Shown here: one piece after another, positions 6,735 through 55,504 of the stretch
Position numbering within the stretch: the stretch's first letter is position 1
How the letters are laid out: every line of letters starts with the position of its first letter
Source: a virus
Strand: one strand, 5' to 3'
IMG/VR virus record: IMGVR_UViG_3300020469_000009
DNA length: 64,000 bases
The notes under the pieces: model-generated
Database searches by the model: none
Told to the model about the DNA's origin: nothing
Seen by the model: the letters and a program-made list of their open reading frames with translations, nothing else
Position numbers and translations under genes: made by a program

Positions 6735-6826
6735 ATTACTATCCAACCTTCTGCTAATGCGATTAAAATTCCAATGAACGGTGTAAAACCAATCAAAAAC
6801 CAAATCAATCTTTCTTTATTACTCAT
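6731..6826 (-). CDS. 31-aa membrane peptide (not in ORF track)
   Basis: MSNKERLIWFLIGFTPFIGILIALAEGWIVI; ATGA overlaps at both ends. Confidence 0.55.
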   Translation of the reverse strand: MSNKERLIWFLIGFTPFIGILIALAEGWIVI

Positions 6827-7248
6827 GCAACCTTCTCTTTCCTGTACTCGTTTTTATAAATTACTTTACCTGTATTCAGGTTATCATGGTAAACATATCC
6901 ACCACGGTCACCATCAAATCTTCTAATCTTAATCCAATGACCATCTTCATTCTTAAAGAGTCTTGGCTCATAGTAAATGCTAGATTCAGAGAATTCTTTT
7001 TGTGATTTCTCATAAGATGGTACCCAATTATCAGTTTCTACTGACCATTCTAGCACATATTCTCTAGACATTGCATTATCATATTCAATCAATGGTATAA
7101 CTTCTGCTACCACTGATTGAATATTATTAACATCGACATCATCAATAATAAAGTCATGACCACCTTTGTATTTCCAATGACCTTCTTTAGTCAATTGGTC
7201 TACATCGTAGTTTTCCATATATTGTGTTTGTATTACTAATTTTGCCAT
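6823..7248 (-). CDS. hypothetical phage protein
   Basis: KLVIQTQYMENY...HWKYKGG; AAGGAG RBS. Confidence 0.75.
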   Translation of the reverse strand: MAKLVIQTQYMENYDVDQLTKEGHWKYKGGHDFIIDDVDVNNIQSVVAEVIPLIEYDNAMSREYVLEWSVETDNWVPSYEKSQKEFSESSIYYEPRLFKNEDGHWIKIRRFDGDRGGYVYHDNLNTGKVIYKNEYRKEKVA

Positions 7249-7277
7249 GTTTATCTCCTTGCTATTATTATTATACT

Positions 7278-7580
7278 CTAAGAGCGTCCTTTTTTTCGGT
7301 ACACTGCAAAAGTATCTGCATATTCTTTATGACAGTGCTCTTGTGGCCTAATATATCCAATATCAAGCTTTGAAGTACCTCTGTATTTGATTAAGTAGCC
7401 TTTGCCAAATAACAGTTTAAATGTATCAAGATACTTGATTGGTATACTCTTAAAGATGGATTGCTCCTTGTATGGACTTTTATATCTTTTTATGAATATA
7501 TCACGGGCATTTAAAGCAGCACCGTGAAATAATGCCAATTGATTTTCAAAGCCAATATCTGTAATTCCTGCTTTTATCAT
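7278..7580 (-). CDS. hypothetical protein
   Basis: GGAGG RBS; operon packing. Confidence 0.7.
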   Translation of the reverse strand: MIKAGITDIGFENQLALFHGAALNARDIFIKRYKSPYKEQSIFKSIPIKYLDTFKLLFGKGYLIKYRGTSKLDIGYIRPQEHCHKEYADTFAVYRKKGRS

Positions 7581-9356: not shown

Positions 9357-10865
9357 TTAAACCTCGCTTTCTGTAATTATTATACTATCTCGAAATGATT
9401 TTAATTCAGGAAATGTAGCATTGAAATCAGTGTCTCTACGCTTATCATATTCAGCAATATATTTTACAAAGTCTTGTTCGTTTTGTTGTCTGAACGCATC
9501 TGACCATCTCGTATCACCCTTGAGTGTAGTGATTAACCTATCAATCTTTGTTATCTCATGGTCATTAAATCTACCAATCCTTGCATAGTACTTAGCATCT
9601 TCTAACCATTTTACAGCTGTTGGCATCATTTCTCTTTGAAACAAAAATATCGATAAAAAAGATGGATTACGTAGATATGGAAAATCTATAGTTAGTCTAC
9701 TATACTTTGGTATATTCTTAAGACCCATTTTCGGTGTATCTCTCATAGATGCCATAGATTTTACCCTTGCAACATCTTTTATAAACTCTGTGTATGATGG
9801 CAGACTTAGTGCATTTACTGTAGACATAATTGTGACATGAGACGGTGCATAATCTGTATCAGGCATATTCATAACATACCATTCCAGGTTCCTAATCCAC
9901 TTGTCATAGTCCATGCCAAATCTAATCCATTCTGATGCTGAGCCAAAAGCTTCAGCTGATGTATACATGTGTAGTTTCTTAATTTTCTTTTCAATAACTA
10001 GTCTCTTCAACATACCCATGACTCTTTCCCATAACTTATCTACTATACAAAAGTTAGAGTTAATGTGTAGTTCCATATTCGGTGCTGGATTATCAGTCAA
10101 GAATTCTAGTACTTTGATAGTGTCTTTTGACATAAATGGTTCACCACCAGTTATACGAAATACTTCTAACTTGTCATAGATATCTGGAAACCACTTCCAA
10201 AATGCTTCTACATATCTGTTAGGCTGATTGTTTGGTATTGGCATTTGATTTTGTGATTCAATATACTCTAGATTATTAAATTTACCAGATGTAGGATATG
10301 GACCATGCGACTTTATTTCTTGCATCCATTTAGAAGATATATGTGGTGCACAATACATACATTTAAAATTACATACATTACTAAATGATACTTCTAAATA
10401 AGATGGTGGTATATCAGCAGTAGAATCATTCTTTAATATTTCTGGTATGTATTTTGTAGCCCAAAAATCTCTTGACTTATAATATCTATCAGACAATGCA
10501 TCATCTTTTTTCTTACGGGCATCTTCTACCCGCCAACAATATTCACATTCACGTGGTCTAAATCCGTGTTTCATCTGATCACGCATTTTCATTTTATATT
10601 GTGTGTTATGCAAAGCACTAGGTCTGTTTAATAGTTCTGTCCAAGGTACTTTGTGAGTCCCTGGGTGGTGACAACTTTGTGTATGACCGTTTTGTAAGTG
10701 CAGTGTAGTTTGTTTCCATTTAGCTACACAAAAGGTGGGTGATATTTTATCTAAAGCTGATGCAAAATCTGTATCAGAGACAGCATTTCTACCATGCCTA
10801 ACATTTGATATACGTTCTAGGCTATCGCTATCTAAGTGCTTTAGATTTATTTTTCGATTTTCCAT
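9357..10865 (-). CDS. radical SAM protein with additional N-terminal Cys cluster (twitch/SPASM-like)
   Basis: CNFKCMYC, ITGGEP, FCVAKW...SCHH, ECEYCW. Confidence 0.9.
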   Translation of the reverse strand: MENRKINLKHLDSDSLERISNVRHGRNAVSDTDFASALDKISPTFCVAKWKQTTLHLQNGHTQSCHHPGTHKVPWTELLNRPSALHNTQYKMKMRDQMKHGFRPRECEYCWRVEDARKKKDDALSDRYYKSRDFWATKYIPEILKNDSTADIPPSYLEVSFSNVCNFKCMYCAPHISSKWMQEIKSHGPYPTSGKFNNLEYIESQNQMPIPNNQPNRYVEAFWKWFPDIYDKLEVFRITGGEPFMSKDTIKVLEFLTDNPAPNMELHINSNFCIVDKLWERVMGMLKRLVIEKKIKKLHMYTSAEAFGSASEWIRFGMDYDKWIRNLEWYVMNMPDTDYAPSHVTIMSTVNALSLPSYTEFIKDVARVKSMASMRDTPKMGLKNIPKYSRLTIDFPYLRNPSFLSIFLFQREMMPTAVKWLEDAKYYARIGRFNDHEITKIDRLITTLKGDTRWSDAFRQQNEQDFVKYIAEYDKRRDTDFNATFPELKSFRDSIIITESEV

Positions 10866-43089: not shown

Positions 43090-43995
43090 TTAGATAATAA
43101 TAATGGATGCTGAATCTCGAAATGATTTTAATGTTTTATATCCAGCAAATTTACAGCTCTTACTAAGTTGTCTTTGCATGTCGATTGCAGTATTTATAAT
43201 TTGCCCATTATACTGTGTATCGTTTTTAAACATTTTACCATCAATAGTTTCTGTACGGCCAAAAGATTCTTCATGGCCATAAAACATTTCAGATATTTCT
43301 ACTCCTGTTGCACCTAGACAGATGGACTTGGAGATGTCAGCAGTGTCAGTATAGTGTCCAGAAGAAAAGATATGTTTACCAGCGTTCCTAGCAATTTCAC
43401 TATTAATGCTAATGCAACTAGCGTGAGGCATAGCAATCCCAGTCTCCATATAATCCTGAGAATCGAACCTAGAATCAAATCCCACCCTGACAACCTCGAC
43501 GCCAACTTCGAAAAGCTTTCTGGTGGCTGTGGGGTCTGCGACTGGTCCTGCGATAATTTTAACATTTTGGTTTTCCTCCTTAAATTTTGCTACCTTGTAG
43601 ATATATTCTACACTGTGCGTATTATTTGTTTTACTTACTAAGTTTACCCACTGAATTTTTCCTGAAGGTAATTTAGATTTAAGTGCTTTCCACTTATTCA
43701 ATTGTTGTTCTGTATCACCTATAGATACAGCTACATTTTTTCGACCTTTAAAGAAAAAGTCATATAATTCATCTATATCATATCTAGTGGATAACATTAC
43801 TCCACAATTAGTATCAGAATCTGATATAGTTTCAGCTATTTCAAAAGTACCTGTTGCTGGATCTGATGATGCCCATATTACAGGTATATCATCAATTTGC
43901 ATTTCAGGATTGTCACTATTTAGAATACTGGAATAGCGTGGCTCAATGACCACGCTATCCAAGTTAACTGGTTTTTGATTATGCAGCTTGTGCAT
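43090..43995 (-). CDS. degenerate GMP reductase/IMPDH-fold protein
   Basis: LDSVVIEP, IIAGPVA, VVRVG, TGIAMP, DISKSICLGA, MFYGHEES; catalytic loop altered. Confidence 0.65.
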   Translation of the reverse strand: MHKLHNQKPVNLDSVVIEPRYSSILNSDNPEMQIDDIPVIWASSDPATGTFEIAETISDSDTNCGVMLSTRYDIDELYDFFFKGRKNVAVSIGDTEQQLNKWKALKSKLPSGKIQWVNLVSKTNNTHSVEYIYKVAKFKEENQNVKIIAGPVADPTATRKLFEVGVEVVRVGFDSRFDSQDYMETGIAMPHASCISINSEIARNAGKHIFSSGHYTDTADISKSICLGATGVEISEMFYGHEESFGRTETIDGKMFKNDTQYNGQIINTAIDMQRQLSKSCKFAGYKTLKSFRDSASIIII

Positions 43996-44917
43996 ATTCA
44001 ACAGCTTTTTTAACAGCGTTAATTTTCTTAACTCTGTTTCCACCAAACCAAGCAGAGTGAACTCTGTTATCTCTAGTGTTAGCCAACTCATGGTCAGTCA
44101 TGTAAGTGACTGCATTAAGAGCTTGCCAGAAAGTACCCTTTTGAAAATTAGCACCCGGTTGAGTGTCAATAACTTCAAGAGCTCTTTGACCATTTCTAGT
44201 CAAGATAACATTATCTTTCTCTGATTTTGATGATTTGCCAAATACATCAGCAAAGTAGTTGTTAAGAGAGTCTTTAGTAAATCTCTTAGTACCTAAGAAC
44301 TCAGCTACTTCTTTGTATTCGTCCATTGACTCTTTAGCTAAACCTAATGTTTGCTGCACAGTTTGAGCATCAAATACTTTCCTGTGGTCTAGTGAAACAC
44401 CAGATTTTCCACCAAGAGCCATTGTCAATGTGTTATTGCATACAACTCTGATAGGTGAGAATCTTACATCAATAGATTTACCATATTGATGTGGATTAGA
44501 AAAAAGTAAATATGATTCAATTTTATCACCATTGAATAATTCAAAGTCATCATCTACTTTAGCCAATGCCCATACCATTTTGCCATCTTGTAAAGAACCA
44601 GCAGTATGCATTTGCATATTACCTTGTTTTACAAAATCAACAAAGAAGTCAAAAGCTTCATCATTTTGTACAGGCTCCCAATTTTGTCCGATAACACTTA
44701 AAACCTTTTGGTCTGTGCTACGTACAAGAGCTTGTTGTGAAGGTATACGAATTTCTTCGTTACCTGATTTTGCTACCATTGGAAGTTTTTCAACACTCCA
44801 ATCTAGCCCCGCAGCTTCTTGCATCTCACGAGGTGTGAGACTATCCGCTACTTTTACTCCAAGACCATGCCAAGGTAATTCCCCCGCATAAGCCATTGTT
44901 TCTACTGCATGTGCCAT
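43979..44917 (-). CDS. DUF932 family phage/plasmid protein
   Basis: MAHAVETMAY..ELPWHGLG, PVQN.EAF.FF, TAGSL..G, PIRVVCNNTL. Confidence 0.88.
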   Translation of the reverse strand: MAHAVETMAYAGELPWHGLGVKVADSLTPREMQEAAGLDWSVEKLPMVAKSGNEEIRIPSQQALVRSTDQKVLSVIGQNWEPVQNDEAFDFFVDFVKQGNMQMHTAGSLQDGKMVWALAKVDDDFELFNGDKIESYLLFSNPHQYGKSIDVRFSPIRVVCNNTLTMALGGKSGVSLDHRKVFDAQTVQQTLGLAKESMDEYKEVAEFLGTKRFTKDSLNNYFADVFGKSSKSEKDNVILTRNGQRALEVIDTQPGANFQKGTFWQALNAVTYMTDHELANTRDNRVHSAWFGGNRVKKINAVKKAVEYAQAA

Positions 44918-45107: not shown

Positions 45108-45452
45108 TTAGACGCCATGTAAATTAGAAACTGGATTCTGTGAACGCTCAATATCATTTTCATTGCTATTTCCTTCCCATATTTCTACAATCTCAGCAAC
45201 CTCTTTACCAGGATTGAATGGTCTATGCCACCCTTTTACTGGTATCTGAAATGCCTTGAATTTCTTTAACTCTGTGATTGATTTGTATTCATTCTCAATA
45301 GAACACTCACCTTTAATAAGGGTCCAATATTCTGCCCTTCTGAAGTGTCTCTGCATTGATAGTGATTTACCTGGTTGAATTACCAGGAGTTTTACCGAAT
45401 AGTTGTCACCTTCGGCTAATATTTTATAATGTCCCCACTGTCGCTTAATCAT
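45108..45452 (-). CDS. mannose-6-phosphate isomerase type II cupin domain
   Basis: RQWG, PGKSLSMQRHFRRAEYW, WHR..N, ENDIER. Confidence 0.85.
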   Translation of the reverse strand: MIKRQWGHYKILAEGDNYSVKLLVIQPGKSLSMQRHFRRAEYWTLIKGECSIENEYKSITELKKFKAFQIPVKGWHRPFNPGKEVAEIVEIWEGNSNENDIERSQNPVSNLHGV

Positions 45453-45485
45453 GACGGATGGAGTCCCCGAAGGGACTCCTAATAA

Positions 45486-45686
45486 TTAAAACATACCTTC
45501 ATCTTTTAAGATAGTAAAAACACCATAACCTATTGCAGCCATAGCTACAATTTTGGTCAATGGAGATGCGATAAGTATAAGAGTTCCAATACCGATAATT
45601 ACGATACCGTCCCAAGATGTTCTTTCTTTAAGACGTGAAGTCACCCATTCAATACCTTCCATTACTGTTTCTTTAATTGATTCCAT
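45486..45686 (-). CDS. small membrane protein
   Basis: RLKERTSWDG followed by two TM helices; AAGGAG RBS. Confidence 0.75.
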   Translation of the reverse strand: MESIKETVMEGIEWVTSRLKERTSWDGIVIIGIGTLILIASPLTKIVAMAAIGYGVFTILKDEGMF

Positions 45687-45718: not shown

Positions 45719-46711
45719 TTATTCTATATTGTTAGCTATTGCAAGAGTTCTTGGATTACCTCTATTAGTAAGTCTAAAAGATAATCTATGTAAAACTCTC
45801 TGTTCTAGTACCTCATCTTTTTCAGGTACTCTTTTGTGTTGAGTAAGTAATTGGTCCATTATAATGACATCTCCTACTTCCCAATCATGTTGATAGATAT
45901 ACTTAGGTTGAAATAAGTATTCTTCTAATTCATCTCTTAATTTATGTCCTGGGTCATCATTTATTTGCATGTGATTATACTTATGCCAATAGATACCTTT
46001 TGTACCACCAGCATTTTCTTGTATTAGCCAAAGCTTAAATGGTTTTTTACCTGCTAATTTAAAGACCATGTGTTGTTCTTTTGACATGACCTTTCCCCAT
46101 TTTTCATAGTCATAAATATACGTAGCATATCTACCTTCTATTTTTTTTCTTAAATTATCTGGCATTTCTTTTAATGCCGGAATAGTATTCATAAATAATG
46201 TAGGTGTATTTTCAGCTCCTTTTATAGCTTGTAATGCGACTCCATCTGCACCGTGTAATTGATTAAGATTACAGTGCCAGTCTAAATAACCTAATTGAAA
46301 AATACCTGTCCATTTATTATTTTTCTTTTCACCAGTGACTCTTTGTACAGGATATTTTTTATGTGCTGGCCAATTAAATGGGTCAGGGTAATCAGAATTT
46401 TCTCTAAAATTATCATCACCCCAGTAATCACCAGGATTAGGATTTGGCATTTGTTTATTCATTAGACCTTCTAAACCTGTTTTTGCTGATGTACCATCTG
46501 CATTCCAAGCCATAAATCTATAATTATCAATGCCCCATATTTTACTAACAATTTTCGAAAAATGTATTGGATTTATATTTTGTTTTGGTATTATCAAAAT
46601 ACCACATGCCTCTACGGCCCTTTTGATTCTGTCATAATCAGGGTCTTTTAAATTAGTGATATCACAATCATCAAAAACTATTTTGTTGTTCTCTAACCCA
46701 TTCATCATCAT
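45719..46711 (-). CDS. TauD/TfdA family dioxygenase-like (H-x-N)
   Basis: LDWHCN, T.F, HDWEVGDVIIMDQ..TQHKR, RVLHR. Confidence 0.8.
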   Translation of the reverse strand: MMMNGLENNKIVFDDCDITNLKDPDYDRIKRAVEACGILIIPKQNINPIHFSKIVSKIWGIDNYRFMAWNADGTSAKTGLEGLMNKQMPNPNPGDYWGDDNFRENSDYPDPFNWPAHKKYPVQRVTGEKKNNKWTGIFQLGYLDWHCNLNQLHGADGVALQAIKGAENTPTLFMNTIPALKEMPDNLRKKIEGRYATYIYDYEKWGKVMSKEQHMVFKLAGKKPFKLWLIQENAGGTKGIYWHKYNHMQINDDPGHKLRDELEEYLFQPKYIYQHDWEVGDVIIMDQLLTQHKRVPEKDEVLEQRVLHRLSFRLTNRGNPRTLAIANNIE

Positions 46712-47699
46712 TATTTACCATAAATGTAAATCTATGCAGAACTCTTTTTTCTAGTAATTCTTCTGCTACAAATTCTCTTTTGTGTTGTGTAATTAATTGG
46801 TCCATAAGTATAATATCGCCATCTTCCCAATGATGCTCATATACATATTTGTCTTGAAACATCCAATCATATAAATCTTGTACTAATGTTTCATCGCCTT
46901 CAACACTCATATTATTTAGCCTATGAAAGTAAATACCTTCAATACCTTTTCTATTTTTCTGTATTAGTTTCATATCCATTGCTCTTCTTTCTTTGTTTAA
47001 AGATAAGAATTGCATAGTAATTCTTTGCATTGGATGCATTTTAGAAACATCAGCCCATTTCTTGTGGTCATATTCAAAGTGAGCTTTTTTACCTTCACAT
47101 CTAGCTCTTAATTCTTCTGGCATCTCTTTCAAAGCAGGTACACTGTTAGCATAAAAAGTACTTGCAACATTAGAATCTTTAATTGCTTGTAATCCTACAC
47201 CATCAGCTTCATAAAAATTACCTAAATTGCAGTGCCAATCTAAATCTCCTGTACCAAATATACCACCGCCAAATTTACCTTTCTTTTCACCAGTGACTCT
47301 TTGCACTGGATATGTGTTAGGTTCAGTTAATTGATACGGGTCTTTATAAGGTAATTGTTCAGTAAGTGCTGATGCTGGTGCTCTTGCATTATCCCAAGAT
47401 TGATTGCCTGCTTCAGGTGTAGATGTATATCCAACATTGCCAGTCCACTGCTCTGGTATTTCTATTAAGTCTCCATTTGGCATCCAGGAACACTGTCTCC
47501 AGTTATAGATACCATCTCTTGCTATAGTATCTACAATTTTAGCAAAGTAATTAGAATCTGTATTTTGTTTTCTTAGTAATACTATTTGTTTATTGAATAA
47601 CCACTCCCTGCATATTTTTCCAAGTTCTCTAATATCATTATCATTATCAGGAGAATCTACTACAATTTCGCAGTGAGTTGGATGTATTAATGTGTCCAT
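46671..47699 (-). CDS. TauD/TfdA family dioxygenase-like (H-x-N), paralog
   Basis: YPVQRVTGEKK shared with neighbour; LDWHCN; HHWEDGDIILMDQ..TQHKR. Confidence 0.8.
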   Translation of the reverse strand: MDTLIHPTHCEIVVDSPDNDNDIRELGKICREWLFNKQIVLLRKQNTDSNYFAKIVDTIARDGIYNWRQCSWMPNGDLIEIPEQWTGNVGYTSTPEAGNQSWDNARAPASALTEQLPYKDPYQLTEPNTYPVQRVTGEKKGKFGGGIFGTGDLDWHCNLGNFYEADGVGLQAIKDSNVASTFYANSVPALKEMPEELRARCEGKKAHFEYDHKKWADVSKMHPMQRITMQFLSLNKERRAMDMKLIQKNRKGIEGIYFHRLNNMSVEGDETLVQDLYDWMFQDKYVYEHHWEDGDIILMDQLITQHKREFVAEELLEKRVLHRFTFMVNNDDEWVREQQNSF

Positions 47700-47926
47700 T
47701 ACGTATTTAACTCGTTTTTATTCATATAAAATCTTACACCTTTAAAGCCAACTATATCTGTAGGTTCTATTTTAAATTGAAACTTTTTACCCATTTCATG
47801 TTGTCTTCTTAAAAAACTCATAGCATTTTCATGTGCCTCAAACATATCTTTACCATTTACCATCTTTGTAGTGGTATAGCCAGGAAACTTTAATATTGCA
47901 CGGACATGCACAGGTTTTGATTTCAT
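47699..47926 (-). CDS. small basic hypothetical protein
   Basis: translationally coupled on both sides. Confidence 0.6.
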   Translation of the reverse strand: MKSKPVHVRAILKFPGYTTTKMVNGKDMFEAHENAMSFLRRQHEMGKKFQFKIEPTDIVGFKGVRFYMNKNELNT

Positions 47927-49161
47927 TAGTCAGCTTTTGATAATAGTGCGACAGAAGACCTGCCACCAAAACCAAAACTATTTTTTAAAGCATAATTAAT
48001 TTGCATTTCTTTAGGCTTTGTAATTAAGTCAAAATAATCATCACAAGGGTCTTTTAAATTAGCTGTATGTAAAGCAATTCCTTTATTCATCATCATACAT
48101 GTATAAGTTATTTCTGCTAATGTACATGCACCCATTGCATGACCTATATGTCCTTTTAGTGCTGATATTGTTGTACCCTTGGGAAGATAATCTTTTAAGG
48201 TGTTCAATTCTATTTCATCTCCCCTCGGTGTACCTGTGGCGTGCGCATTTACGTAGTCAATATCATCATACGTAATATCTTTGTCTTTCATTAAAGACTC
48301 CAAAGCCATTCTATAAGCTTTGCCATCGTCAGCTGGTGCCATAGGATGTCCAGCATCATTTCGATTTCTTACATCATCTACATAACAAAGAATTTTGGCC
48401 CCTCTTTTTTTAGCCTCATCTTCTCTTTCTACAATCATAGCTGCATAAGAGTTTCTAAGTACTGTGCCTGTTCTATTTTTGTCAAATGGTCTACAAACAC
48501 CATCTGGTGCTGCTGCACCTAAAGACATAAAGAACCATCTTGTTAATTCATGAGCATCTAATTGTTCATATCCTGTCAATATTGCATATTTGTTTCCTCT
48601 TTCCAAATATGCTTTTGCCATATCTAATAAGTAAATACCTGATGAACAAGTAGCAGCTGACTGATATACCGGTCCGTGTAATCCATAAATTCTTGATATT
48701 TCTGTTTGTAAGAAATCAATATTTACATTTAGTAAAAAATATGGATTCATACGTTTAAACTTTTTAATTAGTCCTTGATATATTTCTGCTTTTTTAGCAG
48801 GGTCTTCTTCATGTTCTTCTTTCCATTTTTCAAACCAATAAGACTGAAAGTATTCTAATGTAGTTGTAATAGGACCTCTTGTAGTACCAGTCATAATAGG
48901 TGCTTCTATATCAGATTTAAAATCAATATCAGCCATATTTTTTGCTTTATCAACTAAATCTAATACTGTCATTGTAGACCTATCATAATATTTAGTCATA
49001 GCTTTTCTTAATAATCCTTTTTCAACTATAGAGCTTTTTATAGCATCAATATCCATAGATACTGAAGTATCATCTTTCATATATCTGTCAAAATTATTTT
49101 CAATACCATCACTTCCCATACAGTCCGCAATAGCAACTCCTGTCACAGCTAATCTAGTCAT
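47926..49161 (-). CDS. fabF: beta-ketoacyl-ACP synthase (FabF/FabB-like)
   Basis: ATCSSG, RPFD..R.G, NAHATGTP.GD, KGHIGH, NSFGFGG. Confidence 0.9.
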   Translation of the reverse strand: MTRLAVTGVAIADCMGSDGIENNFDRYMKDDTSVSMDIDAIKSSIVEKGLLRKAMTKYYDRSTMTVLDLVDKAKNMADIDFKSDIEAPIMTGTTRGPITTTLEYFQSYWFEKWKEEHEEDPAKKAEIYQGLIKKFKRMNPYFLLNVNIDFLQTEISRIYGLHGPVYQSAATCSSGIYLLDMAKAYLERGNKYAILTGYEQLDAHELTRWFFMSLGAAAPDGVCRPFDKNRTGTVLRNSYAAMIVEREDEAKKRGAKILCYVDDVRNRNDAGHPMAPADDGKAYRMALESLMKDKDITYDDIDYVNAHATGTPRGDEIELNTLKDYLPKGTTISALKGHIGHAMGACTLAEITYTCMMMNKGIALHTANLKDPCDDYFDLITKPKEMQINYALKNSFGFGGRSSVALLSKAD

Positions 49162-50005
49162 CTAATACTCCCATTGTTGGGTCTCCAGCTTTTAATTGTT
49201 CAATAGCTTTTTCTCCAACTTTTGCATCTTGAGTTTTTTTAATTCTTTTTGCAATTAAATTTTTCATTGCTTGTCTATCTCCTCCTGCTTGTGCTGCTTC
49301 TTCATCAATACCAAATGCACTTTGTACATCTTCTTCTATATTATTTTCTATATCTTTTAATCTTTGTCTTGCAGCCGTTGGTGATATTTCAAAATATGTA
49401 CCAAACGTTAGTTCTTGTATATGAATATCTTCTGGTTGTTCAACTAACCAATGTACTTTTTTAGCTACTTCTTCACCGTCCATAAAACTTTCTGGTGTAA
49501 ATACAGGTTTAAACAAAGCAACTGCATCTGTATCTACAAATCCAGGTTTCATACAAGTCACTTTACATGGGTACTTTCTAGTAAATCTGTGTGATAATTG
49601 TTTACCAATAAATTGTAATCTATTTTTTTCACTGACATACGGACCCCAGAACTCATTATAAAATGCTCTAGTAATATCATTGTTAGCCATTTCACTAAAA
49701 TTTGTATGAGCCATACCACTTGTAGAACTCATAATAATAATGTGCTTCTTTTTATCTTGCCACTTATTATAAAGACCATAAGTAATTTTTGCTTGACTAT
49801 CTGGCCAGTAAACATTATTAATAAAAATATCTGGGTCTTCTTGTAATACCCAATTAATTACTGATTTATGTTTACCTACATTAACACCATTAGAACGAGA
49901 ACCACCTACAACTGTATAGTGATTAGCTTCTAATCTTTCTTTAATTGCTTTACCAACACCTTTAGTATGTCCAGTAATGCATACTTTTTTATTTTCAAAT
50001 GCCAT
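49154..50005 (-). CDS. short-chain dehydrogenase/reductase
   Basis: ITGHTKGVG, FINN, MSS, YVSEK, PGFVDT. Confidence 0.85.
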   Translation of the reverse strand: MAFENKKVCITGHTKGVGKAIKERLEANHYTVVGGSRSNGVNVGKHKSVINWVLQEDPDIFINNVYWPDSQAKITYGLYNKWQDKKKHIIIMSSTSGMAHTNFSEMANNDITRAFYNEFWGPYVSEKNRLQFIGKQLSHRFTRKYPCKVTCMKPGFVDTDAVALFKPVFTPESFMDGEEVAKKVHWLVEQPEDIHIQELTFGTYFEISPTAARQRLKDIENNIEEDVQSAFGIDEEAAQAGGDRQAMKNLIAKRIKKTQDAKVGEKAIEQLKAGDPTMGVLDD

Positions 50006-50220
50006 TAGTCAAAATACTTTTTTAAAGCGTCTAGTTTATCATCACACTCAGCAATCTTCATAAGTTCACCTTCAATAGTGACTGCTGTGTCAGGATGTTC
50101 TGCAACACCTACACCATTTGTGATAAGTGTTCTTACATTTAAAATATGAGCTTCTTTTTCACCTCTTAGTTTAAGAGTTAAAGCATTAACCCATTGTTCA
50201 CTTAAATTACTATTACTCAT
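50005..50220 (-). CDS. small conserved phage protein
   Basis: GVGVAEHPD motif. Confidence 0.7.
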   Translation of the reverse strand: MSNSNLSEQWVNALTLKLRGEKEAHILNVRTLITNGVGVAEHPDTAVTIEGELMKIAECDDKLDALKKYFD

Positions 50221-50918
50221 TTATAGTTCTCCTTTATCCAATCATGTTTCTCCAACACTTGTTCAGGGTTGGGTTCTCCGTGGAATACACAGACTTTCCC
50301 GCCATCAGGAATTTCTCTTCCAAACATTTCACTTCTATCTCCTGCATGGGCGCCTCTTGCCATTCCTTTTTTGTAGGACCATGCCCACTCGTCTGGGAAT
50401 GGCTTACAGTAATCAGGGTAAGCATTAAAGTAGCTACTAATAACATTTTGATCACCGAAAAATGATACTTGTTTTTGAAAATCATGAAACACCTTTTTAT
50501 TAGTAATATAATACTCATAAATTGAAGAATATTCTTTGGAATTAAATCTCATGATTGAAGAATTATATTCTTTTCCAGGTAATATACCATTATCTGGTCT
50601 TATAAAGTCTCTTAAAATACCAAATTTTTCATGTTCAAAGAAACAATCTATATTATCTACAATAACTACATCTAAATCAAAATATAACCATTCACCTTCA
50701 CCCATTACATCAGTATTAAACATTTGTAATTTGTTCCACCAACCTTGAAAGCCTGGTAATAGTTCAATAGGTTTAATTGGGCCCGTGTAAAAATTCTGGT
50801 CGGTCATTACATAAAAGTTAAACTCTTTTGTAGTGTTTCGTTTGACCATATTGTATAATCTTTCAGTATAAGACTTAGGATATTTAGTACCCCAGTTTGT
50901 GCATACTACATTTATCAT
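50217..50918 (-). CDS. GT-A glycosyltransferase (GT8-like)
   Basis: WGTKY, GWWNKL, YFDLDVVI, NSS, GDQ, VFHG.P. Confidence 0.8.
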   Translation of the reverse strand: MINVVCTNWGTKYPKSYTERLYNMVKRNTTKEFNFYVMTDQNFYTGPIKPIELLPGFQGWWNKLQMFNTDVMGEGEWLYFDLDVVIVDNIDCFFEHEKFGILRDFIRPDNGILPGKEYNSSIMRFNSKEYSSIYEYYITNKKVFHDFQKQVSFFGDQNVISSYFNAYPDYCKPFPDEWAWSYKKGMARGAHAGDRSEMFGREIPDGGKVCVFHGEPNPEQVLEKHDWIKENYK

Positions 50919-51583
50919 ATTTCTAACCAGTCCTTACACATATCAGTCCATGCTTGGTGATATTCGCATCTTCTATAGTTTGCAAACCAAGGACCACCGT
51001 CTGTGTAATGTACGATATTTGATTCTTCTGGTTTGTCATAATAACCTATTAAATGATTCCACTTATAATCTAATTCACCTATATTATCTGCCCATAACAT
51101 TCTATGAAGATACATTGGTGACTCAGTATTTACTATTTCTGGTGTGAGATTCTTACATTTTTCGTTATTGAATAACATTACACTTGACCAATTTTTTCTT
51201 GGATAAGCATGCTGCATTTTGCCGTCCATCTTTGTCATAGATTTTGGTGAATAATCGTGTTTTACACAAGAAACTGATGCATTTCTATGTTTTGGATTAT
51301 TCATAATATTAACTAAATCAGCTTGCACTAACATATCACAATCCATAAACAAAGAATAACCTTTATAATTCATAAGTGCTGGTGGTAAAAATCTAGTAAT
51401 TGTAAATTCAGTAGAACCTTTTTTATCGTCTGCTCTTGTATAGAAACCTTGTTCTCTCAGTTCATGTAATTTAAGTGGTACAACTTCTATATTTGGATTT
51501 TCTTTTTGTATAGAGTGTTTTGCTACTTGGTATGCAATATCTTCTCTAGAATCCCAACCTATAAAGACTTTAAAATCCTGCAC
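50915..51583 (-). CDS. GT-A glycosyltransferase (GT8-like)
   Basis: FIGWDSRE, STEF..TRF, FMDCD, YPRKNWSS, HYTDGGPWF. Confidence 0.85.
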   Translation of the reverse strand: MQDFKVFIGWDSREDIAYQVAKHSIQKENPNIEVVPLKLHELREQGFYTRADDKKGSTEFTITRFLPPALMNYKGYSLFMDCDMLVQADLVNIMNNPKHRNASVSCVKHDYSPKSMTKMDGKMQHAYPRKNWSSVMLFNNEKCKNLTPEIVNTESPMYLHRMLWADNIGELDYKWNHLIGYYDKPEESNIVHYTDGGPWFANYRRCEYHQAWTDMCKDWLEI

Positions 51584-52331
51584 TTTTTCTTTCCTTTGAA
51601 TAACCTAATTGTTTTCTAGATGGTCCTTTTAAATGATCAAAATATTCACCTAATGGACCTACAACTAGTGGATGTTTACTTTGTGCACCAAAACCTAAGT
51701 CCATACACTTTATAACATTTGATTTAATCATAGGAAAAGTAGTTTCATCAAAGGCAATACAGTCGTGCCAAGCTGAATATTCAAATATTTTATCACCATC
51801 ATACATATTACGATAAACACTGCACCACTCGTTGTGATTTTTATTTTCAGTGTCCCAAATCATAATGCTAGTTTCAGTATATTTAGCTGGCATTCTATTT
51901 ACAAATGACAGATAAACATCTGGGTGTACTATTTTTTCTAAAACTTCTAAAGGTAAGTCTTTCATAGTGACATTATCACCATCTAAATAAATTACGTATT
52001 TAGTCTTAGGATTTTCCAGTTCTTCTAGTTGTGCATATACTTTGTATGCAAATTTAGATGCTTGATGTGTAATATTATTTACATGCACATCATTTACATG
52101 TGGGTGTCTATCTTTATTTCTTTCAGCAAATTGCTTGTGTTCAGGTATTTCAGTATGGTAATCTAAAAAGTGTACTCTTGGTGATACAAAATCTGGTGGT
52201 TGACCTTCATAATAAACATATAAGTGTATATCTTTTGGCCAATGCTTATCAAAAGCTGCTACGGATTTATGTCCATATTGTTCCCAATTATGTGGGCCTA
52301 GTGTCATTACGACTGAAAATTTACTTACCAT
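51570..52331 (-). CDS. GT-A glycosyltransferase-like protein
   Basis: KFAYKVYA, YLDGD, WHDC, HLKG. Confidence 0.7.
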   Translation of the reverse strand: MVSKFSVVMTLGPHNWEQYGHKSVAAFDKHWPKDIHLYVYYEGQPPDFVSPRVHFLDYHTEIPEHKQFAERNKDRHPHVNDVHVNNITHQASKFAYKVYAQLEELENPKTKYVIYLDGDNVTMKDLPLEVLEKIVHPDVYLSFVNRMPAKYTETSIMIWDTENKNHNEWCSVYRNMYDGDKIFEYSAWHDCIAFDETTFPMIKSNVIKCMDLGFGAQSKHPLVVGPLGEYFDHLKGPSRKQLGYSKERKSAGF

Positions 52332-53506
52332 GTGTACCCTGAGCTGTGTAATTCATGAGCTATTACATCATAAGCCAAATCAATTTTGTCTGTAATATCT
52401 ACTGAATCATTACCTAAGAAAAAACCGTGGTCATGAATAGTATCAGCATTTGGTAATGTACCAATTACTTCATAATCTAAATGTTCAATGACAGGGTTTC
52501 TTAAAAAATTACCTGCAACAATTGGTCTAATTTCTACTTGTGCTGCTTGCAATGCAGTGGTTAATTTTTTTCTATCAAAATCTGGATGTATTACTGAAAA
52601 ACCAAACCAAGAACTAGTGCCATGCTCTTCTTGTGTAATTACCATATCTTTAAATTTTTCTTTAAAGTACTTTGCATTTTTTCTTCTTTCTTCCATCATT
52701 GCAGGCCATTTTGCTAATTGTACTTGTCCAATTGCTCCACTCATATCTAATGGTCTTACACTATAACCAGGTAATACAAATTTAAAGCTATCTTCAAATG
52801 GGTCTCCTGTTTTGTCATGTATAAAATTCTTATCAGGTAATGTTCTTAACCAACCATGTGCTCTCATAGAGTCTAAGTAATGAGAATCTTCTTCTGTATG
52901 ACACAAAATCATACCACCCTCCATAGTTTGTAGATGATGACTAAAGAAAAATGAGTGTGTACCCATGTCTCCCAATGTACCAGTTTTCTTACCCTCTAAC
53001 TCAGCACCAAATGATTCACAATTGTCTTCAAATAAATGCATATCATTTTCGTCACAAATATCTCTTAGTTCTTGTAAGTGTGATGGATTGCCAAGTAAAT
53101 TTACAGTAAATATAGCTTTTGGTTTTAAATATGGATTATTAACAGCTTTTTTAACTTGTTCTACATCTAGATTAAGTGTATGCAAATCAACATCGCAAAA
53201 AATTAATCTAAGTCCATATTGTTGTAGTGGAAAGTATGTAGTAGACCAAGATACTGCTGGTACAATAACATAATCACCTTTCCATAAATTGTATGATGGA
53301 TTTAACACTGCAGAACCAATTGCTAATAAATTTGCAGATGAACCACTATTGACCATCTTAGCATAAGGTGCACCCATATATTCAGCAAACTGTTTTTCAA
53401 AGGTAAATACTTCTTCACCCATAGTGTATCTACCAGATTTAATTACTTTTTGAATGGCATCAACTTCTTCAGTTCCCCATGTATCACAGCTTAATGGGTA
53501 CTTCAT
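52325..53506 (-). CDS. colD: GDP-4-keto-6-deoxymannose 3-dehydratase (ColD-type, DegT family)
   Basis: [28 protein letters not shown] with His at the usual Lys position. Confidence 0.8.
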
Positions 53507-54540
53507 GGTCTCACCAAATGTTTTTCTAATTCTTTATCTATCATATCATCCATTAGTGTTTTAAAATTATATTCAAACTTCCAACCTAATTCTTTTTGTG
53601 CTTTAGAAGAATCACCATGTAATAACTGTACTTCAGCAGGTCTAAAAAATTCTTCATCACACTCAATAACTAATTTGTCACCAAAATAACCTTTTTCTTC
53701 TATACCTTTGCCTTCCCATTTTAAAGGCATACCTAATTTACCAAAAACATATTCACAACATTCTTTTACAGAATGTATTTCTCCAGTTGCTAATACATAA
53801 TCTTCAGGTTTATCTTGTTGTAGCATTAGATACATACCATTAACATAATCTTTTGCATGTCCCCAGTCTCTCATGGCATCTAAATTACCAAGTGTTAACT
53901 TTTCTTGTTCATCACTGGATATAGCTACTGCAGCTTTTACAATTTTTTGAGTCACAAAATCATCACCACGTCTTGGTGATTCATGATTAAACAATATGCC
54001 ATTACATGCAAACATACCGTAAGATTCTCTATAATTTCTTGTAATCCAATATGCATATATTTTAGATACACCATAAGGTGAACGTGGCCAAAATGGCGTA
54101 TTTTCTGTTTGTGGTGTTTCAACTACTTTACCATACAATTCTGATGTAGAAGCTTGATAAAACTTACATGTTTTTTCTAAACCAGCTGTTCTAATAGCTT
54201 CTAATAATCTTGTCACTCCTAATCCTGATGCATCAGCTGTGTACACAGGAATGTCAAAAGATATTCTTACATGTGACATAGCAGCTAAATTATAAACTTC
54301 ATCAGGTTTTATCATTGACACTAATTTATCTAGTGTAGAACCATCTGTCATATCACCATAGTGTAGCCAAAAACGTTCGTGATTTAATATATTTTTAATT
54401 CTGCCTGTATTATCTGTTGCTCCTCTTCTACGAATGGCATGCACTTCATACCCTTTTTCTAATAAAAGTTCAGCTAAATATGGCCCGTCTTGTCCTGTAA
54501 TACCAGTGACAAAAGCTTTTTTGTTATCTCTAGTCTTCAT
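53503..54540 (-). CDS. gmd: GDP-mannose 4,6-dehydratase
   Basis: [35 protein letters not shown]. Confidence 0.96.
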
Positions 54541-55504
54541 TATTTTGTCCTTTTAACATATTAGTATAATACCGTAATACTTCAATAGTTTTCAATTCTT
54601 CAATGGACCAAGATGTATAAGCTAAGTTATATAACCATTGATGTCTTTTATCCCATTCAAAAAACTGAAAAGCATTATTAATGTCTTTTATATCAGTGAG
54701 ATACATAGGTGAACCAAATGCTCTTTTGCTTAACGCAAAAGTTGGTATACCTTCAGTCACAGCTTCTAATGCACCAGATGAACTATGAGTGACACATGCA
54801 TATGCTCCATTTAATGATTCAAATAAAGTTCTTCTAGATACTGGACAGTTATGCACTTCTAAATTTTCAATACCTTCAATACATTTTTTCAATGGTGACC
54901 TTGGGTCTAATTTTGGATGTGTTCTATAAATTATTTTTCTTTCTGTAATTTCTCTTATTTGTTTTAATGTTCTATTTGCAAATTTATGATAAGGTTCTAA
55001 ATCATCAAATTGCCACCCTGTTTCTGTTTGTGCTAAAAATACTATTGGACCGTCTTTATTATCTTGTGGTGGACCATCACAAAAATTAAATTGTTTTTTA
55101 AATGCTTCATATCTTTCTTTGGGTAAGTCTTGATTCCAGAATATACCTTGACCTGTACAAGAGTTTAAACCAACTCTAAACATCTGTGTTTCACTACTAT
55201 TCAGTGCATTTCTAATATGAGTTGAAAAGGCTGCTGAGTCTAAAAAGTAGCATGGTTGTTTTGCTGCTTCAATACCTCTTATAAGTACTGCTCTTTCTGT
55301 GTCTAATTTTCTTTGAGTGTATGAACCAAAAGCAAAACCTACATCACAACTTACTGTATGTGTGCCTTCATGTTTATATGCTGTAAATTCACCGCCTGAA
55401 TTATTGGCAGCACTGACTATAGATTCTAAAGCTGCAGTGATAGGATTACCACCATTATATCTTTTACCAGCTTTAATCGATGAGATATAGCTTACTATTT
55501 TCAT
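54530..55504 (-). CDS. capsule-biosynthesis (KpsS/KpsC-like) GT-B protein 1
   Basis: [24 protein letters not shown]. Confidence 0.65.

Follow-up and report, generated by a model that had tools for sequence, protein, structure and literature searches.

The 64,000-nucleotide (nt) stretch of viral DNA analysed here (IMG/VR record IMGVR_UViG_3300020469_000009, hereafter the window) carries at positions 45719-50005 of its minus strand a run of five genes, which are, in the order of transcription, a short-chain dehydrogenase/reductase (SDR), a ketosynthase (KS), an open reading frame (ORF) of 75 amino acids (aa) and two TauD-like proteins that we named TauD-A and TauD-B. Our tentative reading, to which we give a little less than an even chance, is that this cassette is a clade-specific lipid helper module of aquatic T4-like phages that uses host acyl-ACP and malonyl-ACP (ACP, acyl carrier protein). 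In this scheme the KS would lengthen acyl chains by C2 units, drawing both acyl-ACP and malonyl-ACP from the infected cell. The adjacent SDR would most likely reduce the 3-keto product, and the TauD pair would most likely hydroxylate or desaturate the acyl chain, or a lipid made from it, with O2 and probably 2-oxoglutarate (2OG) at an unusual 2-His-1-Asn iron site. The TauD pair would then fill the slot that membrane DesA-like desaturases hold in the nearest relatives, and on balance the infection would leave fatty acids or membrane lipids of the host altered in chain length and oxidation state, rather than yield the product of a free-standing natural-product pathway. The intact genes, the active site of the KS, the lack of a carrier and the gene contexts are observations, from which we infer the substrates, the use of host ACP and the link between the TauD proteins and lipids.

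A first-pass annotation of the window, made by a model from the letters and the predicted ORFs, had listed an SDR, a KS, a 75-aa ORF and two TauD paralogs in this region, and all five ORFs were recovered on the minus strand:

49154-50005, minus strand: SDR-like protein of 283 aa with the motifs TGHTKGVG, INN and YVSEK, a candidate 3-ketoacyl reductase

47926-49161, minus strand: KS of 411 aa with the FabF fold (PF00109 and PF02801)

47699-47926, minus strand: ORF of 75 aa with no match in Pfam, NCBIfam or PHROG

46671-47699, minus strand: TauD-A, 342 aa (PF02668, 60.8 bits at a cut-off of 27)

45719-46711, minus strand: TauD-B, 330 aa (PF02668, 67.9 bits at a cut-off of 27)

The genes overlap by 1-41 nt. 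In comparison with one 84%-identical relative, the ratio of non-synonymous to synonymous substitution rates was 0.22 for the SDR, 0.10 for the KS, 0.21 for TauD-A and 0.11 for TauD-B (0.12 for the GDP-mannose 4,6-dehydratase (GMD) gene encoded upstream), and all four cassette enzymes are maintained under purifying selection.

Both Pfam domains of the KS score above their cut-offs, while the fabF model TIGR03150 gave 174 bits against a cut-off of 494 and no KS model of NCBIfam reached its cut-off. Sequence similarity to solved structures spans residues 133-406 only (best match, the Arabidopsis mitochondrial beta-ketoacyl-ACP synthase (KAS), 136 bits); the AlphaFold2 model (predicted local distance difference test, pLDDT, 91.5) matched FabF structures over the full length in Foldseek searches, with template modelling (TM) scores of 0.80-0.85. 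In the alignment with E. coli FabF (KAS II), C163, H303, H340, K335, T305, T307, D311, E314, F400 and the GFGG loop are kept, so that the likeness to FabF extends from the full-length fold and the Cys-His-His triad to Lys335, Thr305/Thr307 and the Phe400/GFGG gate. The triad had already been read as intact in the first-pass annotation. Moreover, all 38 representatives of the viral clade to which the KS belongs have C163, H303, T305, T307, D311, E314, K335, H340, F400 and G402 without exception. By its sequence, the KS is an intact condensing enzyme outside the FabF equivalog, and its active site predicts that it would be active as a decarboxylating condensing enzyme.

The KS differs from FabF in several respects. 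It is 24-35% identical to FabF, the loops at FabF positions 40-60 and 200-206 are deleted, and two residues of the acyl pocket are exchanged (I108 to Arg and A193 to Asp). A charged insertion that had been noticed at first pass is real; it adds ~22 residues beyond FabF, is modelled as two helices within a helical hairpin (residues ~99-134) and is shared by the two nearest outgroups alone. A basic K/R pair is retained at FabF positions 127/128, which we take to be ACP contacts. In phylogenies inferred with IQ-TREE (quick search) and with FastTree, with E. coli FabF and FabB, Pelagibacterales FabF and a true fabD-fabG-acpP-fabF locus as the comparison set, the KS fell into a separate virus-only clade with a support of 100, and hence it is not an ordinary FabF. 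The best cellular relatives, searched for in one representative genome each of 185,579 prokaryotic species, are at most 35% identical and only partially covered. The KS is absent from cultured phages; the tblastn matches there are 24-30% identical and lie on records resembling bacterial sequence. An ordinary host-derived FabF or bacterial contamination is ruled out by the score, the tree, the context and the lack of a close cellular relative.

The genes next to the related viral KS genes point to acyl chains. Of the 38 clade representatives, 20 have a desaturase-family gene no more than 10 kb from the KS, and in 15 of the 38 such a gene is its immediate neighbour on the same strand. These KS-adjoining desaturases are ~250-260 aa long (PF00487, with a DesA family as the best NCBIfam model) and often form arrays of two to eight genes. 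In addition, FabI adjoins the KS at loci L020 and L035 (340 and 214 bits, respectively) and FabG-like SDRs do so at L021 and L052. A clade whose members adjoin DesA-like desaturases, FabI and FabG-like genes would fit a lipid or acyl-chain function of the KS. As for the layout of individual loci, the two FabI genes (L020:13022-13873 and L035:10901-11677, both in uncultured phages) are located in the same run as the KS and five desaturase-family genes, and the FabI/KS run of L020 stands beside gp38/DUF4815 tail-fibre genes. Five to eight desaturase-family genes surround the KS within 20 kb at L057 (IMGVR_UViG_3300023179_000086), L058 and L059.

Our main argument for including the TauD proteins comes from the position of the KS. 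In three lineages whose KS are 42-52% identical to one another, the KS island is located at the same place, between sugar or glycosyltransferase (GT) genes on one side and DUF932/IMPDH-like genes on the other. In L007 and L008, the KS is followed by three desaturases and then by AhpC. In L182, an AhpD-like gene lies upstream, and the KS is followed by three desaturases, a 70-aa ORF, a TauD protein of the same H-x-N type as the window proteins (see below; 44% identical to TauD-B), a fourth desaturase and AhpC. The KS of L007 and L182 are 43% and 42% identical, respectively, to the KS of the window, where the same slot contains the 75-aa ORF followed by the two TauD paralogs. The post-KS slot can thus hold O2-dependent iron enzymes of either of two unrelated folds, or of both, which suggests that the TauD proteins act in the process served by the KS. 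The AhpD-like (CMD family) and AhpC genes that flank the KS-desaturase runs of these outgroups (L182:2308-2766 and 9637-10167; L008:868-1338 and 6747-7304) are an observation of their own and hint at the handling of organic or lipid hydroperoxides.

The exact arrangement SDR-KS-(75 aa)-TauD-TauD was found in six IMG/VR contigs with KS that are 84-99% identical, and nowhere else. The cassette had been proposed to be a self-contained, conserved four-gene mini-biosynthetic operon, with synteny across viromes as the way to check it. The four genes do co-occur in these six contigs, but the set does not extend beyond this one narrow clade, and the SDR family and the H-x-N TauD family are each widespread in phages without a KS, so that the idea of such an operon is not supported.

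Lipid genes in aquatic phages have precedents. The presence of fabF and a stearoyl-CoA desaturase in freshwater pelagimyophages was mentioned in one sentence (Zaragoza-Solas et al. 2020, PMC7029224), a virome survey names fabF, fabG, fabZ and desC as helper genes (PMC10653327), and cyanophage desaturases are active delta-9 enzymes (Roitman et al. 2017, PMC5776448). The combination found in the window is not described in these three papers, and no other literature report of it was found. Like the viral lipid auxiliary genes described before (PMC5776448, PMC7029224), the cassette would supply single steps of host lipid metabolism in a T4-like aquatic phage without the rest of the pathway, and its KS belongs to the very clade that neighbours such desaturases in related phages; it differs in that two TauD-fold proteins and a short SDR replace the desaturase, which adjoins the KS of L007 and L182, the nearest outgroups, and is lacking there in the window. 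Until now, fabF and desaturase genes of phages had only been listed as helper genes. What is new here is a large virus-only KS lineage with a perfectly kept active site, which is repeatedly linked to O2-dependent iron enzymes belonging to two unrelated folds. In the lineage of the window it comes without a carrier, and none of the phage loci examined has a carrier gene next to the KS, although a few of the phages encode one in another part of their genome. If the lipid-remodelling function is confirmed, control over the chain length and oxidation of host lipids would be a common strategy of ocean phages, and the membrane properties of infected cells as well as the lipid pool released on lysis would be affected.

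A condensing enzyme of this type needs a carrier in the reaction proposed above, and we searched for one at several levels. The absence of an ACP from the window, which the first-pass annotation had noted, was confirmed with a hidden Markov model (HMM) of ACP, whose best match in the 64 kb had an E-value of 1.2; this two-sequence model recovers three viral ACPs at E-values of 1e-12 to 1e-18. In the 152-kb contig of the 84%-identical relative, estimated to be 85% complete, PF00550, PF01648, PF00698 and PF00501 had no match even at an E-value of 10, and neither there nor in the window did we find an ACP, a phosphopantetheinyl transferase (PPTase), FabD or an acyl (AMP) ligase. Across 76 viral KS loci in IMG/VR, none had ACP, FabD or FabH within 10 kb, whereas the bacterial control locus was detected in the same screen; the KS, unlike FabF, never adjoins acpP, fabD or fabG. 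Among ten other KS-bearing phage contigs that were searched in full, three encode an ACP, in each case 30-55 kb from the KS, while none of four contigs from the clade of the window does. A phage carrier elsewhere is possible, but as far as known there is none in the lineage of the window. The lack of ACP, PPTase and FabD in this lineage implies a dependence on host ACP, as the first-pass annotation had suggested, and since the phage has no carrier, no activating enzyme and no malonyl transferase, the KS would rely on the acyl-ACP and malonyl-ACP of its host. The 364-kb contig of L052 (G008), which has terminal repeats and is 100% complete according to CheckV, represents a complete jumbo phage that encodes a KS, a FabG-like SDR, a desaturase and a GMD-like gene, and has no PF00550 carrier genome-wide.

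Both small ORFs of suitable size were considered as candidate carriers and rejected. The 75-aa ORF has no family match and no Asp-Ser-Leu-type site, is not among the matches of the ACP HMM at E-values up to 100, and yielded only leads below 0.9 in an Atlas search. It behaves as a variable indel that is present in the window and in L004-L006 and missing from L001-L003, in which the stop codon of the KS abuts the start of the TauD gene. The 71-aa ORF upstream of the SDR belongs instead to phrog_1811.

TauD-A and TauD-B are 40% identical to each other, and the TauD assignment made at first pass stands for both by Pfam and by fold; what had been overlooked is the residue at the position of the carboxylate ligand. 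Neither paralog has the 2-His-1-carboxylate triad (H-x-D/E...H) of the TauD/TfdA Fe(II)/2OG dioxygenases, because Asn replaces the acidic iron ligand. Both contain H-C-N; in the alignment of TauD-A with CarC, WHCN lies over H101-x-D103, with Asn on D103, and QHKR lies over H251, and the H-C-N motif of TauD-A is kept in its relatives. Within the family, W-H-x-N was found in 120 of 120 database homologs and in 85 of 87 viral copies, and H146, N148, H292, R294, R305 and R309 are invariant in 117 members, with the three Arg residues following the distal His at positions that correspond to the RxxHR motif of TauD. The fact that nearly all members share the Asn argues that the loss of the carboxylate ligand is a fixed family trait and not decay. 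In Pfam family and fold the window proteins agree with TauD, AtsK, CarC and ScoE, the distal His aligns with theirs, and so do Arg residues of the putative 2OG site. The AlphaFold2 model of TauD-B (pLDDT 88.7) gave TM scores of ~0.6 to TauD, AAD, CarC, PlaO1, ScoE and SfaA, with a Foldseek probability of 1.00 for TauD, AAD, CarC and ScoE, a comparison that supports the fold and does not discriminate between substrates. Departures from the facial triad are known from AspH, which has two His only (PMC13168262, PMC10915816), and no report of Asn as a replacement was found in the literature.

The H-x-N proteins are common in marine phages as stand-alone genes, and this abundant TauD-fold family is a well-defined target for enzymology. 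Close to a KS they also occur at L066, L070 and L073. Among 74 viral loci that were seeded with an H-x-N TauD outside the clade of the window, a desaturase was found within 10 kb in 22 and a window-type SDR in 9; these figures count related phages and do not stand for independent events. In marine phages that lack a KS at the respective locus, an H-x-N TauD gene recurs within 10-15 kb of a desaturase-family gene and of a short SDR of the window type (L012, L209, L212, L216-L218, L238 and L264).

The SDR, a short and divergent member of the classical type, consists of a core of ~200 aa and a charged C-terminal tail of ~80 aa that was added in the clade of the window. The classical motifs TGxxxGxG and YxxxK are present, the latter aligning to the SDR structures 3tn7 and 3l77 in the PDB, and the 30 members of its small, phage-borne family conserve T11, G12, G16, G18, N63, N64, Y123, K127, P154 and G155. 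The scores stay below the thresholds for a family assignment, with 20.3 bits for adh_short in Pfam (cut-off 26.6) and ~19 bits for the FabG models of NCBIfam (cut-offs >220). In L045, a KS, two desaturases and a window-type SDR are contiguous, with no sugar genes within 10 kb. A lipid role of the SDR is plausible, not secure.

Several observations weigh against a lipid-remodelling module. The window itself has no desaturase, no PF00487-type gene was found within 10 kb of the KS in the window or its clade, and the co-occurrence counts given above ignore the relatedness of the phages. None of the 74 loci seeded with an H-x-N TauD outside the clade contains a KS, and small soluble molecules are the usual substrates of TauD-family enzymes. 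The Arg and Asp in the acyl pocket of the KS are not those of FabF, and the substrate may therefore not be an ordinary fatty acyl chain. Relatives of the SDR in phages without a KS adjoin SAM synthetase and radical-SAM genes, or gp46 and peptide deformylase, and the SDR could instead serve the adjacent sugar pathway, which is a live alternative.

The explanation that we consider unlikely but take most seriously among the rivals is that the four genes share no pathway and are independently useful neighbours in a hypervariable island. The KS would then aid fatty-acid synthesis of the host, the H-x-N TauD proteins would act on an unrelated small molecule, and the SDR would be the missing 4-ketoreductase of a deoxy-sugar route or something else. 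Each of the families occurs alone in other phages, and the exact combination is limited to phages whose KS are 84-99% identical. The tight packing of the cassette is no argument for a joint function, since the glycosylation genes upstream overlap equally and all genes of the region are packed in this way, which makes it ordinary for this phage. The sugar role of the SDR is attractive because the GMD and the 3-dehydratase-type (ColD/RfbH-type) DegT enzyme encoded upstream need a 4-ketoreductase and no other one is visible. This explanation would leave the recurrence of two unrelated oxygenase folds in the post-KS slot of three lineages as a coincidence, and the contiguity of a window-type SDR with KS and desaturases in L045, away from any sugar genes, does not agree with it.

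A second alternative takes the flanking genes as partners. As the first-pass annotation stated, the cassette is located directly downstream of glycosylation genes; we confirmed GMD, DegT and GT genes in an upstream sugar island (50217-55504), and a sugar-related gene lies downstream as well:

54530-55504, minus strand: GT-like gene at the start of the sugar island

53503-54540, minus strand: GMD (gmd, TIGR01472, 510 bits)

52325-53506, minus strand: DegT-family enzyme (best model RfbH, 241 bits; motif SFFFSHH)

45108-45686, minus strand: membrane peptide of 66 aa with a hydrophobic stretch in its translation, and a cupin of 114 aa (PF01050, 76 bits)

The DegT-family enzyme has a His at the position of the Schiff-base Lys of aminotransferases. 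Between it and the SDR lie three GT-A-like or phage GT genes, followed by the 71-aa phrog_1811 protein, and the GT family phrog_1962 is represented in the island. The cupin resembles the C-terminal domain of mannose-6-phosphate isomerase (PMI). As an observation on the island itself, GMD together with a His-type DegT (52325-54540, minus strand) suggests a route to a GDP-3,6-dideoxyhexose (colitose-like), with no Fcl/ColC-type reductase visible.

With such neighbours, a short hydroxylated acyl group might be made on host ACP and attached to the deoxy-sugar glycan of the flanking genes, tailoring a glycan or glycolipid of the host surface or the virion. We regard this as rather improbable. The cassette is indeed flanked by GMD, the 3-dehydratase-type DegT and several GTs on one side and by the PMI-type cupin on the other, a GMD-like gene occurs within 10 kb of the KS in the clade of the window, L007, L021, L050 and L052, and L182 retains DegT and GT genes upstream of its KS. 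Yet sugar genes are not near most phage KS loci, hypervariable islands of this sort gather unrelated accessory genes (PMC7029224), and the island yielded no acyltransferase of any kind: the 253-, 222- and 233-aa proteins resemble GT-A or other phage GT families, and searches of the PDB and the Atlas with the 253-aa protein, the latter giving a GT-A lead, returned no other lead. The first-pass proposal of a tailored acyl chain built on host ACP thus agrees in its first part with the intact KS, the missing carrier and the lipid context of related phages, whereas its second part, acylation of the virion or a glycan, finds no support in the gene content.

Returning to acyl lipids, a stronger form of the lipid-remodelling reading would be that KS, SDR and the 2-His-1-Asn TauD proteins make up a real pathway from host acyl-ACP to a distinct oxidised lipid, possibly halogenated or decarboxylated. 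We consider this a long shot; if it is true, the H-x-N family would represent a new ligand class among the non-haem iron enzymes, with chemistry not yet described. We give even less weight to a specialised metabolite, that is, a discrete secreted or signalling lipid of the oxidatively decarboxylated, halogenated or isonitrile type rather than a change in bulk lipids: the TauD fold does include ScoE-type enzymes whose substrates are fatty-acid derivatives, the structural matches include ScoE and SfaA, the KS acyl pocket is unlike that of FabF, and Fe/2OG halogenases are characterised by having lost the carboxylate ligand, but those have Ala or Gly where the window proteins have Asn, the NCBIfam matches to ScoE are weak and far below the cut-off, and an ACP, a ligase, a thioesterase, a chain-length factor, a nonribosomal peptide synthetase and isonitrile-pathway partners are all missing from the cassette. 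The same holds in comparison with type II polyketide and other secondary-metabolite clusters, as no chain-length factor, dedicated ACP, cyclase, thioesterase or ligase was found in the window or the 152-kb relative.

The window derives from a T4-like marine myovirus with a G+C content of ~33%. Its gp43-type polymerase is 43% identical to polymerases of Synechococcus phages, and homologs of gp45 and gp44 as well as a gp46-like ATPase are also encoded. The sole match to a cultured phage at the DNA level (blastn) is a GT gene of the pelagimyophage Mosig, which infects Pelagibacter. Scans for promoters, terminators and T4 late promoters gave nothing above chance within 43.2-64 kb, and every gene around 45719-50005 is on the minus strand. 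Downstream of TauD-B, the 66-aa membrane peptide and the PMI-type cupin are followed by DUF932 and an IMPDH-like gene; the latter, an IMPDH/GMP-reductase-like gene at 43090-44091 on the minus strand of the window, also follows DUF932 in L008 and L182. In a related phage, a window-type SDR lies directly between a gp46-like ATPase and a peptide deformylase (L101:2871-3775), which implies that the whole sugar island of the window occupies what is a single junction elsewhere.

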